Shown: positions 2,508-49,209 of the stretch, in pieces | How positions within the stretch are numbered: the first letter of the stretch is position 1 | How the letters are laid out: each line of letters begins with the position of its first letter | NCBI RefSeq assembly: GCF_024521635.1 | Contig: NW_026250416.1 | Location: 124,001-188,000 of the forward strand | Direction: 5' to 3' | Length of the DNA: 64,000 bases | Source of the DNA: Tricharina praecox | Lineage: Eukaryota | Position numbers and translations under genes: made by a program | Notes under the pieces: model-generated | Seen by the model: the letters and a program-made list of their open reading frames with translations, nothing else | Database searches by the model: none | Told to the model about the DNA's origin: nothing

Positions 2508-5085
2508 ATGAATGTACCTGCTTACTTCCAGTCTTCCACGCCATTCCAAACAGCAGACCTGTTTCCGCAGAGTACCTACGGTAAGTAGCTGGACGACTGC
2601 ACTCTATCCATAGTAGACTCGAGTCTACCTACTCTAGTTACATACGGCGGACGATGTGGCTGCCTCCTCTTGGTGGGAACGTAAATTGCTCAAGGGCGCA
2701 GAGCTGGAGCGCAGAGAGCAAAGAAAGCAAAGCGAAGCACAAATGATAACAGCATACATATCATCACACACATATCACACATACATACCGTACATACACG
2801 CAACAACCACTCCAAAAAACACATGGCCTCGAACAAACGTCTTTTCTCTCTCTCTCTCTCTTCTCGGCTCCTCGACTGCATGCTGCACGCGCGAAATGCG
2901 GTTTAGTGGCTGAATGCGGATATGCGCGTAGCTCGATGAGGTTGGATGGCTTTGCTGGCGGATGGATGGACGGATGGGTGGAGGGTGGGTGGTGGAAGGG
3001 TGGAAGGGTGGGTGGTGGATGGGGCCATGGGTGGATGGGGCCATGGCCATGGATGGAAGGGCTTTTTCGGCGAGTTCCCGTCTGCACGACAAAGTCACAT
3101 CTCCATGCACCCATCCGGCTCGATGCTGAAGCAAGCACCCTCTTTTTCTCTCTGTCTCTTTCTCGAGTCGCACCCACACCCCGAAGGGCGTCGTACCTAC
3201 ATGTTCGTATATAGTACCCAATGTACTCGTACTCCTGTCGGCCGGCACTCGTCTCTTCTGGAGCATCCAAGTAAGTTACATACCGGAGTTTCCTCTCACT
3301 TCCGAATCTCCCCTTGAGAGTAAGAAACATGCGGTCGCTCGCCGTCCGTTTCGTACCCATTTGTGCACTATGCTACACACTTCCTACCCAGATGTAGACA
3401 CAGCAGATGCCCTCTTCGTTTCCTCGGGTTTGCTTGCCTGCTTTTAGCCTATCTTTCGTGCATGCGAACCCCGCAGCCCACCACCAGTACCACCACCACC
3501 ACCACCACCATTATCGCCTACGAACGACGGCGCAATAATGCCCCCCACCCCCACACTAGGAGCCGGTGTTTGGCGATGGATCGTGGGATGCAATCGAGAG
3601 TGGATGAAACAGTTTCGTGGACTAGTACGGTAAACTCGACAAACTTCCTCTCGCGGTCCACGGATGCAAGAGGAACAGAAATAGACGCCGATACGGCACA
3701 GACGAGGATGCGCCGCAAGATATAGGTATCGGCGCCTATGTATAGTACCTAGGACAACGCGGTGGCTTCCGTCGTTTGATGCAAGATGTTATCACTCATG
3801 TGAAGAGTATGTCCGTCCCCATTGGCTCTGGATGCAGTGCTATACACGGCCGCCTTCAAAGATCTTCCGCTTCTTCCCGAAAGCTGCGAAGATGCGAAAC
3901 AGCAGACAGACACTTCTCTTCTCCGGGCGCTCTCGGAGCTCGGAGCTCGGTCTGTTGTTCTCAAACGACCTCTCCGTAGGTAGTCCCTGCCGCCGCCGTA
4001 TACCTATACCCAGTAGATTGCATGATCTCGGACACCGTTCATGGTCTGTTTCGATCGGACTTGGCCAGAAACGAATCACGATGTCTTATCCGCAACCCCG
4101 CCAATTTCAAACAAGTTTCCGAAATAGAAGATAAACGTGGAGCATTTAGGTGTGGAAGTCGTCACTGACACTGACGGACGGCCGGGATTGCGTGCGTTGC
4201 GTGCGGGAAATGGAACCATCCCTCATGTATGTACCGACGCCTGTTCCCTATCCCGCCAAGAGTCGGTGCTCTGGCTACTGTCATAGAACTGTCTCAATGC
4301 CGAGCCCGCTGGATGTGTCTCAGTATCCGTCGACCCAGGTACCAACACCAGGCTTCTTCAAACTCCTTCAAACTCCGCCAAAGAAGACGTATGTAAAGCC
4401 CATTGTTGTGCAACCCTTTAAGTGGTTCCAGATGACATTGATAGGTACATACGAAGGACCATGAGTTCGCTTTGTTCCAGCGTGCCTTCCTTTGATAGAC
4501 GCGATGGACATCGATCAGACATTCAAGGATCGAGCCGATCTTTATATCGGGCAGGTGTCTGGCGTTTCAGCCTTCAGCCTTCGGCCTTCGGGGCCTGAAG
4601 GAAGAGTGAGCAGGCGTGTCTATGCTATGTATAATGTAACCGCAAACGAGGACGGTGTTATTCTTACATACCTTTTCGCGCTTGATCATTCATCCAGCTA
4701 CCGACCTCCTATGACCTAGAGTAGCTGTTCGGTTTACCGTGCCTTGTGTATCGTGTACACTACATAGTCGTAGTTAATCCCATTCGAGTGAGGTCTATCC
4801 GAACCCTCTCTGCCAGGCTTGGCGGGACTCTGCGCGTCTGACCATATTTCCGAGTCGAGATGACGGCGGACCATGGCGTGTCTGCGGGCTAGGGATCAGG
4901 CCTGTGGTCGCTGGTGGATGCCAAGGGGCCGCGGTTGCCCCGCACGTGATGGCAACGTTAGTGGACAACGCTAGGTGAGCTTCACGTCACCCGAACAACG
5001 CGCCGGACTGTCACGGCTCTACATACTATACACGCCCGCCACTCACGAATCATCACCACACCGTAATCTGTCTACTTCAGCCACG

Positions 5086-8000
5086 ATGTTTGCTGCCCCC
5101 CATACAGTAACAGAATGGGAACGATGCTAATAGATCGAACAGGTGTAAGTTCGCTTTTGGGCCGGTATGGGACGCAATAGCAATAGGTAGCTGATAGTTA
5201 CGGACGATTGCAGCGCGCATCGACAAGCTCGCCATCCTTGGGTATATATTAGACCATCCGGACGGCGATGAAATATCTGCTGAAAACCACTCCCTATGTA
5301 GTGTCCGGTCCTTCGACAACACGCGCACGGAGAGCATCCAGTTCCACACGCCGTTGACACTAATCGTGGGCTACAACGGGTCTGGGAAGACAACGATCAT
5401 CGAATGCCTCAAGTACGCGACGACGGGGGACCTTCCGCCGAACAGCAAGGGCGGCGCGTTCATCCACGACCCGAAGATGTGCGGCGAGAAGGAAGTGCTC
5501 GCACAGGTCAAGCTGTCGTTCAAGTCCATCAACGGCGCGAAGATGGTGTGTACGCGCTCGCTGCAGCTGACGGTTAAAAAGACCACAAGACAGCAGAAGA
5601 CGCTGGAGGGGCAGTTGCTGGTGGTGAGAAACGGCGAGCGATCGACTATTTCGTCGAGATGTGCCGAGCTCGATATGGTCATGCCGCAGTATCTAGGCGT
5701 GTCTAAGGCCGTGCTGGACTATGTCATCTTTTGCCATCAGGACGAGAGTCTGTGGCCGCTGAGCGAACCTGCGGCGCTGAAGAAGCGCTTCGATGAGATA
5801 TTCGAGGCGCTGAAATATACCAAGGCGATCGACAATATCAAGGTGTTGCGCAAAAAGCAGAACGAGGAGCTAGGCAAGCTCAGGATTCTGCTGGAGCAGT
5901 ATCGTACTGACAAAGATCGAGCGGAAAAGGTGTTTTTTTCATTTTTTACAACCGCTGAGTGTTGATTGGACTGTTCTGACGAGGCTATGTGCAGGCCAAA
6001 CGTCGATCGGACGAACTCCACGAAGAGATCGAAACGATGCGGGTAAGGGTCACGAATCTGAGTACCGAGCTGCAATCGATCGCACAAGAGCAAAAGACAC
6101 TATTCGAGACAGCTCGAGGCTTCGAGCACACGCTTGCCACGCTAGAAATGAAGCGGCAGGAAGCAGTTTCCAAGCAGTCGCACCTCCAAGAGCTGTCGCA
6201 GCACATGGACTTTCTGGAGGACTCTGACGAGAAGCTACACGAAATGCACGACGACTACGAGCGGAGATTGAGATCGTACGAACAGCACGTGCAGAACAAG
6301 AAGGCTGCGTACAACCAGTTGAAGGTCAAGCTGGAGCAGGTTAGAACACAGTTAGGAAATAAGCTTACCGAGGAGGGCCGCATCCAGGCCCAGAGGAAGC
6401 AGTACGAGGGCCAGCTGAGAGAGCGCGAGGACCTGGTCAGAGAGATCAGTGTCAAGCACGATATGAAAGGCTTCAGTGGAGAATTGGACGATGAGCAGAT
6501 TCAGGAGTTCATGGCTAAGATCACTCGCATGTCGCGAGATCAGGGCTTGGTTTTGGAGAGGATCAAGCGCGAAAACGAGAGTAGCATATCGTGGGCCCAA
6601 AACGACCTCAATGGTCTGGTGAATAAGAGAAGTTCGCTGCGGCAGAAGAAGGAATACGCACAATCGGAGATCAAGAACCTGGACAGGAAGGTCGCTGAAT
6701 ACAAACGGAATCTGGATTCCTTGAATGTGGACTCTGGACAGGAGGCGATGGCCAAGGATGATCTCAGCAAGAGGGAAATCCGTCTTGAGGAAGCCAGAGC
6801 CAAAGCTCAGGTGGCCGACAACGACGGCTCACTTCAAGTCGAGAACGCTAAACTACGGAAACTGGAAGAGGATGAAGGTTCTGTAACGGAGGAACTCTTC
6901 CAGGGATCGAAGAACGCAGAGCTCAGAGCCCAGTTGGCTATTCTCAAGCAGAACCTGGAGACCAGACAAAAGGTCTATGCTTCGTTGTAAGTGTAAACAC
7001 ATCATTGGTAGTCTGAGGAACTAGACTGATATAGCTAGAATCGCTGCGAAAAAGGACAAGATCGATAGTGTCGTTGGCAAGCGGTGGTCCGAATCAACAG
7101 TCGAGAAAGATCTACAAGCAGTTCTAGAGTCAGTGAATAATCTTTACCCCCATTATGAGCTCGCCGACTCACGTCTGGCAGTCAACGTGAGGAAGAACAG
7201 CAAGAAGCCATACGGCAACGTGAGATCGTGAATCAACAGGTTTCCCAAATCGACACAAAGCTCGGCATTGCAAAGGATTCGTTGAAGCGGAAGCAAGATG
7301 AGGCTTCTAGTAAATCATTGTGGATATCTCTTGATAGGACGGATTGCTGATGCGCTGCCACAGAATGCGAAGCGACGGTTGTGCAATCCTGGGAACTAGA
7401 AGACGGCACTACGAACAATGTAAACGACTATCCAGATGCCTTGAAAGATCTCGAGGCGCAGCGAGCGTCAGTACTCCTCATTTCCCCAAGTGACATCAAC
7501 TAAACTTCTTCAGGGCCTTCAAACAAGGAGAATTCATGCTCAATTATCTCAACTCCGCGGTAGCAGTGGCAGAGAGGAAGAACGCATGCGTTCTCTGCAG
7601 ACGTGGCTTCAAAGATGAGGACGAGAAATCTTCTCGGCTCACTGAGGTACCTAATCACCCGCTATTTCACGCTCCCGTTCAATTCACTTATGCCCGTTCG
7701 CAATATAGTTCAGGAAGCAGATCGAAAAGGTATTGAAAAATGCTGATGAGGAGGTTATCCGGGGATATGAAGAGGATATCGAAATCCTTCGCGAGGCGGG
7801 GCCAAGCTACGACTCGTACGTGCGACTCACGTCGATTGAGATTCCGGCGCTGGAGACAGAGATCAAACAGTACCAGAAGGCAAAGGAAAAGCTTCTCGAG
7901 CAGTACACCAAGGTGAGAACAATTCTTCCCCGAGCGATGCCATCAAACTGACATTTGTTCCGCAGCTCGACAAAATCGTCGATGACAAGTCCAATGCTAG

Positions 8001-9888: not shown

Positions 9889-10504
9889 TCAGTCTTCCTC
9901 GTACGCCTCGTCGTCGCCAACGTACGGCAGGAAGCGGAAGTCCACAAAACTAGCCACCCCGCCCTCCTGCTCGATCATGAACTGCATACTGAGCACGCCG
10001 TGCCCATCTCCTCTGATACTAACCTTCGACGCAATAGCCATCGCCCTCGCCGCATTCTTGATCAGCGCAAACTTGTACCTGTCCACACACATCTCAGCAA
10101 ACTCCCCTTCCCACTTCCCACCACCCACCACCAACCACCAGCCACCATCAGCACTTACGTATTCAGCACCTCCTTATCGCACCTATAGCTCTGCAGCAGG
10201 GCCTTATCATTCAAGAACTCGACCTCGGTACTTCCCATAGCTCCAGCGGCACTGAGACTCAGCCCGCTGCGCTGCGGGCTCGCAGCAAGCGTTAGCCGCT
10301 CCGGCATCGACCCCTCTAGCTCCTGGATCGCGTCCTGAAGCCAGCTCGCTTTCATTATCACCTTGAGCGCGAGCGAGGATAAAGATAGCGGTATGTCCGC
10401 GATCTCCTCCGCCGGGTATGTCGATAGCGTGCATGTCGTTATGGTGCCGTTTTCTTCCAGCCTTTTCCATAAATCCAGCCGTCAGTCGGGGCCGGGCGGG
10501 GCGT

Positions 10505-10535
<31 letters not shown>

Positions 10536-11141
10536 GGGGCAAAGGGGGACGCACATCAAAGCGAGCGGAAACCCAACCCCACGGTACGAGATCCTGCAGG
10601 TCCCCGAGATCCTAAGCACCTGCTGATCGAACGCGGAGCTGTGCGGCGCCGCGGCGCCGGCAGAGTGCCACTTCTCGCGCTCGCGCTCGGCGCCAAAGAT
10701 CTGTAGGCACTCTAGCAGCGAGGCGAACGAGATGCCGAAGCTTACTGTGCTCGTGCTGCTGCTGGTGGTGGAGGTGGTGGTTTCGCTGGGCGGCGGCGTG
10801 AAGGTGTAGCTGCTGAAGAGGTGGCGGTCGACGAGGATGTGCCCTGGGTGGTGGGTGTTAGGGAGGGCGAAGGGGGGGCAGAGGAGAGGGGGCAGGTCCA
10901 GACCTTGCATTACACGGCTGTCTTCAACGGTTACTTTGATCCCTTCCGCGAGAAGCTCCATCTGTGCTCGCGGTTGGAAGCCGCAGCATTTTAGCAGGTT
11001 GAAGAGTTGGCGGGCGGAAGTGGTTGTTGCGCTGAAGATTGGCGATATGGAGGGGGTTGCTGGTGTAGCTTGGGTGGGGATTGCTTGTGTGGGTTGAGTA
11101 CGTTGAGTACGTTGGGTACGTTGGGTGGGTTGGGTGGACAT
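9889..11141 (-). CDS. RAD1: Rad1/Rec1/Rad17(Sc) family 9-1-1 checkpoint clamp subunit, 4 exons
   Basis: Motifs IFSATTTSARQLFNLLKC, GIKVTVEDSRVMQGH, SLLECLQIFG, KVIMKASWLQDAIQEL, ARAMAIASKVSIRGDGHGVLSMQFMIE and FVDFRFLP. Introns at 10844-10903, ~10461-10554 and ~10079-10158. Confidence 0.93.
10505..10534. repeat. G30 homopolymer inside RAD1 intron 2
   Basis: 30 consecutive G on the + strand (poly-C in the RAD1 pre-mRNA). Confidence 0.9.
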
Positions 11142-46469: not shown

Positions 46470-49209
46470 CTACAAATCCTCCTCCTCCTTCTCCCTGGCC
46501 TCCTCCATCTTCCCGCCATCAGGCCGCATCAAACTCGTGAGCTTCCCAAACTCGCTGACGATCTCGTTGCCGAGGGCTCCCAGCTCGTGCTCGGCGAACT
46601 CCTTCGCCTGCTCGAACCGGCTCCCGTCCAGGTCGTTCTTCATGCCAGCGTAGAACCGCTTTGCGGAGCCCTTTTCTTGCTGCGCGCGGATGTTTTCTTG
46701 ATCGGACGGTGGGAGTTTGTCTTCCTCCTCGTCCTGCTCCTTCTCTGCCTTCTCCACCTTCTCCTTCTTATCCTCTTTCTCCTCCTCGACTTCGGGTTCT
46801 GGTTGGGGTGTGTGCGGTGGTTGTTGTTGGGGTTGTTGAGGTTGTTGTTGGGGCTGGAGTTCAGGCTGGTGCTGGGACTGCTCGAGGAGAATACTGTCTG
46901 CGAGTTGACTCTGCGACTCATCGTACTCCTCGTCCTCCTCGTCCTCGTCGTCTTCGTCCTCATCGTCGCCCTCTTCGTCCTCAAGTTCCTCGCCGTCCTC
47001 GATGTACGAATCACCCATGTACCCAGCGTCCTCATCGTCGTCGTCGTCCTCATCATCGTCATGGTCGCGCCCCTCATCGTCAGAATCACTGAAGTCTTCC
47101 GGATCCATGATTCCCTCGCGCCAGAAGTTGAAGTCCGTGTACTCCTCCTCGACCACCTTGTGTACGGGCGGAAAGAAGTGGTCGACGAGATCCCGCATGT
47201 TGACGTACGAGCTCTTGTACTTGGTCAGACAGAGGAGGTCCAGCACCACCTCGGCATTGCTGTTGATCGTGAAGATCCGAGTGCTGGGGATGTTGACGCT
47301 GCGGTATGACAGCGCATCCGTGAGACGGTTTCCGAAGCCCGCGTAGAACGGCGTGTGCCCAGGGCCAAATAGATTAAAAATGTCCCGTAGACACGCCATC
47401 TTGAACACCTCCGGCTTGCGGAGATAAACTTCTCGCCGTAACGCATGAAAGGTTCGGTCCGGAGACATGATCACGGGCCCCTTAGGGAGCTTGAAGCTGT
47501 CTTGGACAATGCCGTTGAGATAGTTTCTTGTTGTGTCCGCTTGCCCGACGGAGCGAGAGGTGAGGTAGAGGAGGTTGTAGCCGTTGGCGGCGATGTCGGT
47601 GTAGAGCTTCGCGACGCCTAGGTGCGTCCAGTCCCGTCCAACCATGGTGAAGATGTGCCCGAGGGCGTCGGACTTGGTGATCGTTCCGTCAATGTCGGAG
47701 ATGACGATGGGGACGTCATGCCGCCATAGGTACATGTAGGCAGTACAGGTGGCGCGGTTGACGCTGAAGGAAATCTCATTGCTGCCAGGCTTGAGGTCCA
47801 AGCTCTTGAGCTGGTCCGAGGTCAGGCGCAATGTCTTTGCGTAGCTCCTGGAGTCGATTCCGGATTCGCGGCCGCCCGGGGGAGGTGACGAGGGCGGGGT
47901 TGAAGCCGGAGTCGAGGTAGCCCGCACGGCGCGTTTGTCCTCGCCCGAGGAATACCCACTCTTTGCGTCATCCGAGGAGTAGCCTCCATCCGAGACCGCG
48001 GTCTCAATGGCGTGAAGGAATCCTTCCTGCCGTCCGGCCTTCTGCTTTGCCTCTTCGCTGGAATAGATCCAAAGATTCCCGTCTCTATCAGCGCCGATCA
48101 AGGAGCCGAAATCGTAATCACCGTCGAGTTCCTCGGCGAGGATTCTCCGAGCCAGCTTCTCAGCTTCAAGGGTATCCTCCTGGTCCAACTTGTAGCCGTG
48201 CATGTCAAGCATCAGGTCACCCTGATTTGTGATGTGCGTCTGGATGTTCGAGATCGACAGCTTGCGCGATAACGCCATGGCGCGCTCGACAGCCGCCGCA
48301 CGTTCCAGTGGTGGTGGAGAGCGTGTTCTCACCGGGCCGTTCATATCGCCGGCAGTAGTGTAGCGACGCCCATTGCTGCTGCTGACAGTGAGCACCTCGT
48401 CGGATTGACTCCGCTCCATCGCCAACGACGTCCCCGACCAGTCACCACTCGCCGGGCGCATAAGATCTGACGGTGCATTTGCGAGGGGTGCCGTGCTGCC
48501 TGTCACACCATGAGACTCTGTCGCATCGACAGTGATCAGGATATTATTACCGAAATCCGACTGTGCCCTCAGATCCGATTGCGCGCGATTCGGGCGCACT
48601 GTCGGTTTCGCTGTTCCGCTGAAATCCGCTATGTCGAGGAAATCTGGTTCTTGCAATGACGTAGCGTCGGGTACAGAAGGTTCCGAGCGCGGACTCGATG
48701 CTGGTGATACTAATGGCGACGTCTGCAAATCTCTAGGCACAATCCCCGAAGTTTCAAAGACGAAGAAAGCCTCTCCGGCTTCGCCGAGCTTCATCGAGTA
48801 ATCCGTTCTTGCACCGTTGACTTTGAACTCCACCTATCGGAGGCCAAGTGAGTCAGAGATGCGCCTGCGATGAGATGGACGGATGCCACGGTAGCGCGTA
48901 TAACGGACCTTCTTTTCGTAGGGTCGCAGGAGCGAGAACTTTCCGAACCGGACGTGAAAAGGAGAACATGCCAGGTCGCCTGCGGTTCTCACTGTCAGGA
49001 AATGTAGCCGTGATGTGCGCGGAGGGGAAATGGCAAACCATTATCCTGTTCCACGACTATCACGTCAATGGCACCGCTCAATGTTGCTGGGCTGTACGGA
49101 GAAGATGTCAGTCGCCGCCGTCGCGAAAGTAGTCCAGTCCGGAGCGCGCCTACTTTATTGAATTCCATGTTTTTGACACAGAACCACTGAGAGACCGGAC
49201 ATACTGCAT
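46470..49209 (-). CDS. PAH1: Phosphatidate phosphatase Pah1/Ned1/lipin
   Basis: N-LIP region MQYVRSLSGSVSKTWNSINPATLSGAIDVIVVEQ...CSPFHVRFGKFSLLRP, HAD motif VISDIDGTITKSD, FYAGFGNRLTD, and a long acidic C-terminal tail. Confidence 0.96.

Follow-up and report, generated by a model that had tools for sequence, protein, structure and literature searches.

Exons of a single nucleotide (nt) have been described in the plant genes APC11 and VPS55 (PMC4674806; PMC8831610). For the plant 1-nt exon, an argument from simultaneous occupancy led to the proposal that the flanking introns are recognized by intron definition and removed one after another, in a recursive-like manner (PMC4674806). In fungi, a 1-nt exon in the configuration AG-G-GT was reported in 2026 for CYP621A of Fusarium, and was called the first fungal case by its authors (PMC12940212). 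That exon lies within the coding region, belongs to one P450 subfamily of one genus, and was deduced from an incompatibility of intron phase and confirmed by public transcript data (PMC12940212). The present work concerns the 5’ end of the DNA repair gene RAD50 of the cup fungus Tricharina praecox, contained in a stretch of 64,000 nt (NCBI RefSeq assembly GCF_024521635.1, contig NW_026250416.1, positions 124,001 to 188,000 of the forward strand), the whole of which is referred to as the window and numbered from its first letter. At this locus the start codon is very probably completed by a 2-nt exon, GT, that is placed between two canonical GT..AG introns.

Like the exons of plant APC11 and VPS55, the RAD50 exon is too short for exon definition, stands between two canonical introns and has long been conserved. 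It has likewise been missed by annotation, with wrong N-terminal peptides as the outcome, and is matched by intronless copies in some lineages. Unlike the plant exons, it is 2 nt long, is fungal, and supplies the last base of a start codon. A further difference is that the discarded donor consists of the same two bases as the exon, so that the mRNA aligns to the genome without the microexon, via a non-canonical intron. With Fusarium CYP621A it shares the features of an ultra-short fungal exon, conserved in orthologues and missed by pipelines (PMC12940212), whereas the RAD50 exon occurs in three or more classes of Pezizomycotina and forms part of the start codon. The RAD50 microexon is a new, deeply conserved case in the class of ultra-short microexons, unusual in that a start codon depends on it for one of its bases. 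It adds a core DNA-repair gene to the few genes with exons of 1–2 nt (plant APC11 and VPS55, Fusarium CYP621A). No published account of a 2-nt exon or of an interrupted start codon in RAD50 was found in the literature searched, in which subscription journals were mostly outside scope.

By its sequence the host gene is RAD50, with a predicted N-terminal Rad50/SbcC-type ATPase that includes a Walker A motif and with homology over its full length. Translation of positions 5303–5929 was 100% identical to P0001, a T. praecox protein of 1303 residues listed at NCBI in which the Pfam domains PF13476, PF13558, PF02463 and PF13304 (Rad50-type ATPase) are found, and the product of the window exon was 80–93% identical to proteins named DNA repair protein RAD50 by their sources. 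The arrangement of exons and introns at the 5’ end is collected in the table. Each of the sequence elements from which the first-pass annotation of this DNA had assembled the RAD50 start was found where it had been placed. The genomic ATG occupies positions 5086–5088, with the A at -3 falling on position 5083, and its G is also the first base of the intron 1 donor. Both of the introns that flank the GT are complete in themselves, with a donor, a branch site and an acceptor that are suitably spaced; the branch sites lie 12 nt (intron 1) and 19 nt (intron 2) before the acceptor. The exon that follows reads CGCGCATCGACAAG.. at its start and requires one added base in front to encode its peptide, and the donor GTATAT stands directly after it. 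The first-pass annotation had held that no ATG in the right phase precedes the GTAAGT donor at 5145; no other in-phase ATG was present in the window sequence, and the RIDKL frame is closed upstream by a TAG at 5195–5197. Left unspliced, the ATG at 5086 opens an open reading frame (ORF) of only 14 codons.

Features at the 5’ end of RAD50 in the T. praecox window, with the basis on which each was placed
Feature	Positions	Strand	Basis
First exon: 5’ untranslated region and AT of the start codon	5008..5087	+	Contig starts; no ATG in 5008–5085; A at -3
Intron 1, 55 nt: donor GTTTGC, branch site CTAAT 5127–5131, acceptor CAG	5088..5142	+	Sequence; absent from mRNA contigs
2-nt exon GT	5143..5144	+	Sole reading with GT..AG ends throughout; conserved position
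Intron 2, 69 nt: donor GTAAGT 5145–5150, branch site CTGAT 5191–5195, acceptor CAG	5145..5213	+	Sequence; absent from mRNA contigs
Exon (S)RIDKLAILG; its initial CG completes codon 2	5214..5241	+	Sequence; contigs
Intron 3, 60 nt, GT..AG	5242..5301	+	Joint 5240/5241 to 5301/5302 in both contigs
Exon VRSFDN...GSGKTT (Walker A)...DRAEK	5302..5929	+	Contigs; identity to P0001
Intron 4, 65 nt, GT..AG; RAD50 coding resumes at 5995	5930..5994	+	Joint 5927/5929 to 5993/5995 in both contigs

The structure of the mature transcript was read from contigs of two sequencing runs, X1 and X2, which come from two studies and were aligned over window positions 4700–6200. Each run yielded one RAD50 contig, of 5111 nt (X1) or 5076 nt (X2), aligned with 0 mismatches and 0 gaps. 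Both contigs join position 5089 to position 5214, skipping 124 nt with the ends TT..AG and leaving no slack in the placement of the joint. The resulting junction, ATGT-CGCGC, encodes MSRIDKL and is the one that the first-pass annotation had predicted for complementary DNA. Two further joints, from 5241 to 5302 and from 5929 to 5995, are common to both contigs and have GT..AG ends. Because of these three clean joints, two of them with GT..AG ends, the contigs were taken to be spliced RNA. The X1 contig starts at 5014 and that of X2 at 5008, the latter with an adapter-like loose end before it; given these starts and the absence of an ATG from 5008–5085, the rebuilt ATG is the first AUG of the mRNA. 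The public T. praecox protein P0001 already begins with MSRIDKL, the same N-terminus as was deduced in the first-pass annotation. In the metatranscriptome runs X3 and X4, no contig aligned to window positions 4700–6200. A model with a single intron, running from a donor GTAACA at 5107 to an acceptor at 5197 and giving an in-frame extension of 13 residues, was unsupported by the contigs, and it is also weak in that its sole branch-like site lies only 3 nt from the AG. Together, the sequence and the junction confirm the observation made in the first-pass annotation.

To compare the locus with its relatives, the protein of the next exon was used to scan metagenome contigs, giving 80 RAD50 loci, which were searched with a pattern of three elements: ATGT, AG-GT-GT inside the skipped stretch, and AG ahead of the C with which the (K/R)IDKL exon begins. 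Among 81 sequences (the 80 loci and the window), 52 fitted this pattern, 20 had a contiguous, intronless ATGTC.., six had an intron without AGGTGT and three could not be assigned by the pattern. Four of the six (L050, L051, L053 and L052) carry AG-GG-GT at the same place, and the other two (L029 and L044) have just 34 and 51 nt of upstream sequence. Of the last three, L069 and L070 show the architecture by eye, having been missed by the peptide part of the pattern, and L065 is a fragment. The final tally for the 80 loci was 57 with two introns, 20 intronless, two too short upstream and one fragment. Every locus that has an intron and enough upstream DNA (57/57, in 29 groups as defined below) therefore reads AT-GT..YAG-G(T/G)-GT..YAG-C, so that the AT-intron-GT-intron arrangement, whose conservation across Pezizomycotina the first-pass annotation had proposed to check, is borne out. 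No locus with just one of the two introns, or with introns but lacking the internal acceptor, 2 nt and donor, was present among the informative loci.

For scoring of the splice signals, 56 sequences (window included; L069 and L070 were read separately) were reduced to 42 distinct sequences and then to 29 groups, with a cut-off of at least 72% identity over the skipped region; a cut-off of 65% was too loose because chance identity reaches 0.65. Between the 29 groups the skipped region had a median identity of 0.59, as against 0.55 for shuffled partners, and thus stands at the level of chance. In shuffled sequences an internal AG-G(T/G)-GT with at least 40 nt on each side arose in 1.5% per locus, and in at most 6%. 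The position of the microexon was GT in 27/29 groups and GG in 2/29. Several positions that the pattern does not demand were conserved as well. The intron 2 donor had A at +3 in 26/29 groups, G at +5 in 26/29 and T at +6 in 21/29, and the intron 1 donor had G at +5 in 28/29. The internal acceptor had C at -3 in 19 of the 29 groups, and the start codon was preceded by A at -3 in 25/29 and by C at -4 in 22/29. The equivalents of intron 1 measured 48–69 nt, with a strict CTRAY 6–27 nt before the acceptor in 40 of the 42 distinct sequences, and those of intron 2 measured 49–122 nt, with a strict CTRAY 10–23 nt before the acceptor in 36 of the 42.

The loci were placed taxonomically by their best hits among named proteins. 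The architecture was present in loci nearest to Tricharina (L001-L004; 83–97% by stretch), to Tuber (L005, L016-L019 and L038; 80–99%), to Penicillium canescens (L023; 100% over 325 residues) and to other Penicillium species (L006 and L007; 93–95%). It was also present in loci nearest to dermatophytes (L057; 94–100%), to Aureobasidium pullulans (L061 and L062; 98%) and to Pleosporales (L047, L049 and L050; 74–88%). For the most divergent locus, L052, the best named hits were Leotiomycetes-like and only ~54% identical, too distant for a taxonomic placement. Pezizomycetes, Eurotiomycetes and Dothideomycetes are thus all represented among the loci with the predicted two-intron structure, which is widespread in Pezizomycotina, well beyond the single genome of the first-pass annotation; there was no indication of it outside Pezizomycotina among the loci examined. 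The standard fungal tree places the shared ancestor of the three classes early in Pezizomycotina. Given this tree, presence in all three would date the structure to an early Pezizomycotina ancestor.

The 20 intronless loci (L010-L012, L020-L022, L024-L026, L030, L034-L037, L040, L042, L045, L046, L054 and L068) include close relatives of Alternaria (L037 and L040; 99%) and of Lomentospora (L068; 93%). Among the public Rad50 models gathered, all 26 from Hypocreales start canonically, which suggests that Hypocreales are likewise intronless at the RAD50 start. Since both states occur within Pleosporales, the structure has been lost more than once. As read, all 20 intronless loci also lack the next intron, at ILG-VRSF, and four loci (L013, L031, L055 and L056) keep the twin introns and are missing the ILG-VRSF intron. 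This pattern fits a repeated joint loss of 5’ introns. Some lineages have lost the arrangement through the clean removal of both introns.

A GG microexon was found in L050, L051, L053 (at about 2847–2848) and L052, and predicts Met-Ala in place of Met-Ser at the N-terminus of Rad50. Both forms occur among relatives, as L049 (GT, predicted MSTIDRMMI) and L050 (GG, predicted MATIDRMMI) have a common best named hit, P0122. The public model of L050 itself, P0121, starts far inside the protein.

The core proposal of the first-pass annotation, that RAD50 requires two splicing events around a 2-nt exon, is supported by the junction and by the conservation in 57/57 loci. From the observed mRNA junction, the splice signals and the conservation of those signals, we infer the two-step, one-after-the-other route and the constitutive nature of the splicing. 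In this mechanism the RAD50 pre-mRNA would contain two ordinary U2-type GT..AG introns, both of normal fungal size, that are most likely excised one after the other by intron definition. Removal would be sequential because two spliceosomes cannot share a 2-nt exon at the same time, and because an acceptor in use excludes the simultaneous occupancy of a donor two bases away; the product would be independent of the order of removal. The joining of AT, GT and CG.. would give ATG TCG, encoding Met-Ser, followed by RIDKLAILG. Within the microexon, the G would complete the ATG and the T would open the Ser codon TCG. In the genome, the G of the ATG is part of the intron 1 donor and would be discarded, with an identical G restored by the microexon. 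Splicing at the RAD50 start appears to be both constitutive and obligatory. Canonical splice sites explain the mRNA only when the short exon is included, and the flanking splice sites and the microexon are, on genomic comparison, conserved in the orthologues, which places the exon in the ultra-short microexon class.

At ratchet points, very long animal introns are subdivided with zero bases kept, as splicing to the acceptor regenerates a donor for a second round. Recursive splicing is named in two of the papers compared here (PMC4674806; PMC5587772), and the process at RAD50 would be akin to it, in that an acceptor and a donor are juxtaposed, as at ratchet points and recursive splicing exons (RS-exons). 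Unlike at ratchet points, RAD50 retains two bases and has introns of only 55 and 69 nt. The locus does not contain a recursive splice site of zero length, as the two retained bases separate CAG from GTAAGT.

Several points weigh against the reading of two introns around a 2-nt exon. The mRNA sequence alone fits a one-step removal of 5090–5213 equally well, because the genomic GT after AT, which is the first donor, has the same letters as the microexon GT. No partly spliced molecule or lariat appeared in the transcript evidence, which consists of assembled contigs, in which rare forms, intermediates and the order of splicing are invisible. X1 and X2 have only a guessed library type (‘RNA?’), their RNA nature having been deduced from the joints. 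The architecture in the 57 related loci is known from their DNA, and it was found by means of a pattern (ATGT, AG-G[GT]-GT), so that conservation at the pattern positions is partly by construction. For this reason the count that matters is that of the informative loci, 57/57 with no failures. Finally, P0122, the nearest named relative of the loci with a GG microexon (74–78% identical), starts with MST and others start with MSK, which neither confirms nor refutes the predicted Met-Ala.

It has been proposed that the microexon could act as a regulated on/off switch, in which skipping or intron retention removes the start codon and tunes the output of Rad50. Each of the mis-spliced forms would indeed be non-productive. 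Retention of intron 1 or of intron 2 leaves ORFs of 14 or 17 codons. Skipping of the microexon destroys the start codon, as the first-pass annotation had pointed out, and the first AUG of the skipped form opens an out-of-frame ORF of 57 codons, with the next in-frame AUG lying past the Walker A motif. A precedent for such regulation exists in Xlr2 of Trichoderma virens, where the inclusion of a microexon, likewise in a filamentous ascomycete, decides which protein is made (PMC11121469). The Xlr2 exon is alternatively included and its regulation has been demonstrated (PMC11121469), whereas the sole RAD50 form in the contigs of X1 and X2 was the fully spliced one with the microexon included, although contigs mask minor forms. 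The arrangement has been kept over a long evolutionary time, as a switch might be, yet a neutral structure would also be expected to persist for long if its loss required the precise removal of both introns. The structure is moreover dispensable, given that the 20 intronless loci, among them the relatives of Alternaria and Lomentospora, manage without it. A regulated switch is therefore considered unlikely.

On a related view, a 2-nt exon ancestral to Pezizomycotina was kept for a purpose, with two obligatory and ordered splicing reactions gating the translation of a dosage-sensitive Rad50, either through the competence of splicing or through a regulated choice at the microexon, for example in meiosis or upon DNA damage. 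This idea is speculative and has a low probability of being correct. Were it true, the RAD50 microexon would be the shortest among the known exons with a share in a start codon, and it would serve as a natural model of how the spliceosome handles an exon below its own footprint.

The transcript could in principle arise by the removal of one non-canonical intron (5090–5213, TT..AG) in a single step, with the first exon ending in ..ATGT and the internal CAG-GT-GTAAGT being irrelevant. The aligner places the contigs in exactly this way, and ATGT precedes the skipped stretch in all of the loci. Despite this, TT..AG is no known splice-site pair, and across the related loci the equivalent 5’ dinucleotide would differ by lineage (TT, GA, AA, AC, AG, TA, GC and GG), whereas on the reading with two introns it is GT in every lineage. 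A single step also provides no reason why a branch site and YAG, then 2 nt and a GTRAGT-like donor, should be kept inside the skipped stretch in 57/57 loci from 29 otherwise unalignable groups, for which the chance expectation is 1.5%, and leaves the donor consensus that follows AT (G at +5 in 28/29 groups) unexplained. Removal in one step is thus highly improbable.

The RAD50 structure is not a stwintron, a nested pair in which the inner intron splits a splice signal of the outer one, and the outer intron becomes functional only after the inner has been excised. The resemblance lies in the abutting U2 introns, their consecutive removal by intron definition, and the occurrence of documented stwintrons in the same subphylum, Pezizomycotina (PMC5587772; PMC9024468; PMC12403724). 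In stwintrons, one splice signal is split and no base from between the introns reaches the mRNA, and the definition in PMC5587772 excludes structures in which no splice element is interrupted. At RAD50, all six splice signals are intact in the genome, including the downstream GTAAGT at 5145 with its branch site and acceptor, and the mRNA keeps the two intervening bases, which it needs to complete the ATG and to begin codon 2. A stwintron proper accordingly has next to no chance of being the correct description. Of the two possibilities raised in the first-pass annotation, a stwintron or consecutive splicing, the second stands and the first does not, as GTAAGT is already intact before splicing and two bases stay in the mRNA. 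It is also exceedingly improbable that the joined contigs are artefacts of assembly or derive from a processed DNA copy instead of RAD50 mRNA, as might be suspected from the unrecorded library type of X1 and X2 (‘RNA? may be DNA’), because the same three joints, two of them canonical GT..AG, recur with 0 mismatches in two runs from two studies, the contigs are of mRNA size (~5.1 kb) with starts within 6 nt of one another, and the public T. praecox protein shares the N-terminus.

With two introns and a 2-nt exon as the preferred reading, the state of the public Rad50 models can be considered. The 120 models nearest to the window protein comprise 17 with a canonical start (Met and nine residues before G[IV]RSF) and 103 without, the latter having unrelated extensions fused to (K)IDKL or starting at or after VRSFDN. 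Over all 302 models, a sample biased by how the models were gathered, 119 were canonical, 74 contained the ILG exon behind a different N-terminus, and the ILG exon was missing from 109. Non-canonical N-termini were thus present in 183/302 public models (P0001-P0302), several of which begin only after Walker A. Three named anchors combine two-intron DNA with an aberrant public N-terminus: L023 with P0012 (Penicillium canescens), L057 with P0088 (near Microsporum/Trichophyton) and L038 with P0002 (near Tuber). These are the models that would be produced by a structure which gene finders are unable to model, and the structure of two introns and a 2-nt exon probably underlies most of the wrong public Rad50 starts. 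A spliced start codon, coupled to a donor that mimics the retained bases, leads aligners to report a bogus TT..AG intron and gene finders to miss the start. Many public fungal Rad50 models lack the first ATPase strand or carry junk extensions, which matters for alignment, modelling and expression. The RAD50 locus also offers a good natural system for the study of intron definition and consecutive splicing at an exon below the footprint of the spliceosome.

The intron 1 donor of the window, GTTTGC, has a close counterpart in close relatives, where L001-L004 have GTTTGT as the first RAD50 donor; from these loci, a GTTTG-type donor seems to be tolerated in the Tricharina lineage. The first-pass annotation had noted a second GTTTGC donor at 49038 on the minus strand, and this is real as sequence, with CTGAC and CAG following ~60 nt downstream. 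The stretch at ~48979–49038 on that strand (GTTTGC...CTGAC...CAG) is short-intron-like in sequence. Upstream of the RAD50 transcript start, X1 contained a separate contig of 129 nt and low depth (5), aligned at 4700–4799 and ending at 4799, which may represent stray DNA or the tail of an adjacent transcript. In the gene beside RAD50, window positions 10480–10560 hold a GGN/CCN repeat, with ORFs on both strands that contain a run of ~11–13 prolines or glycines.

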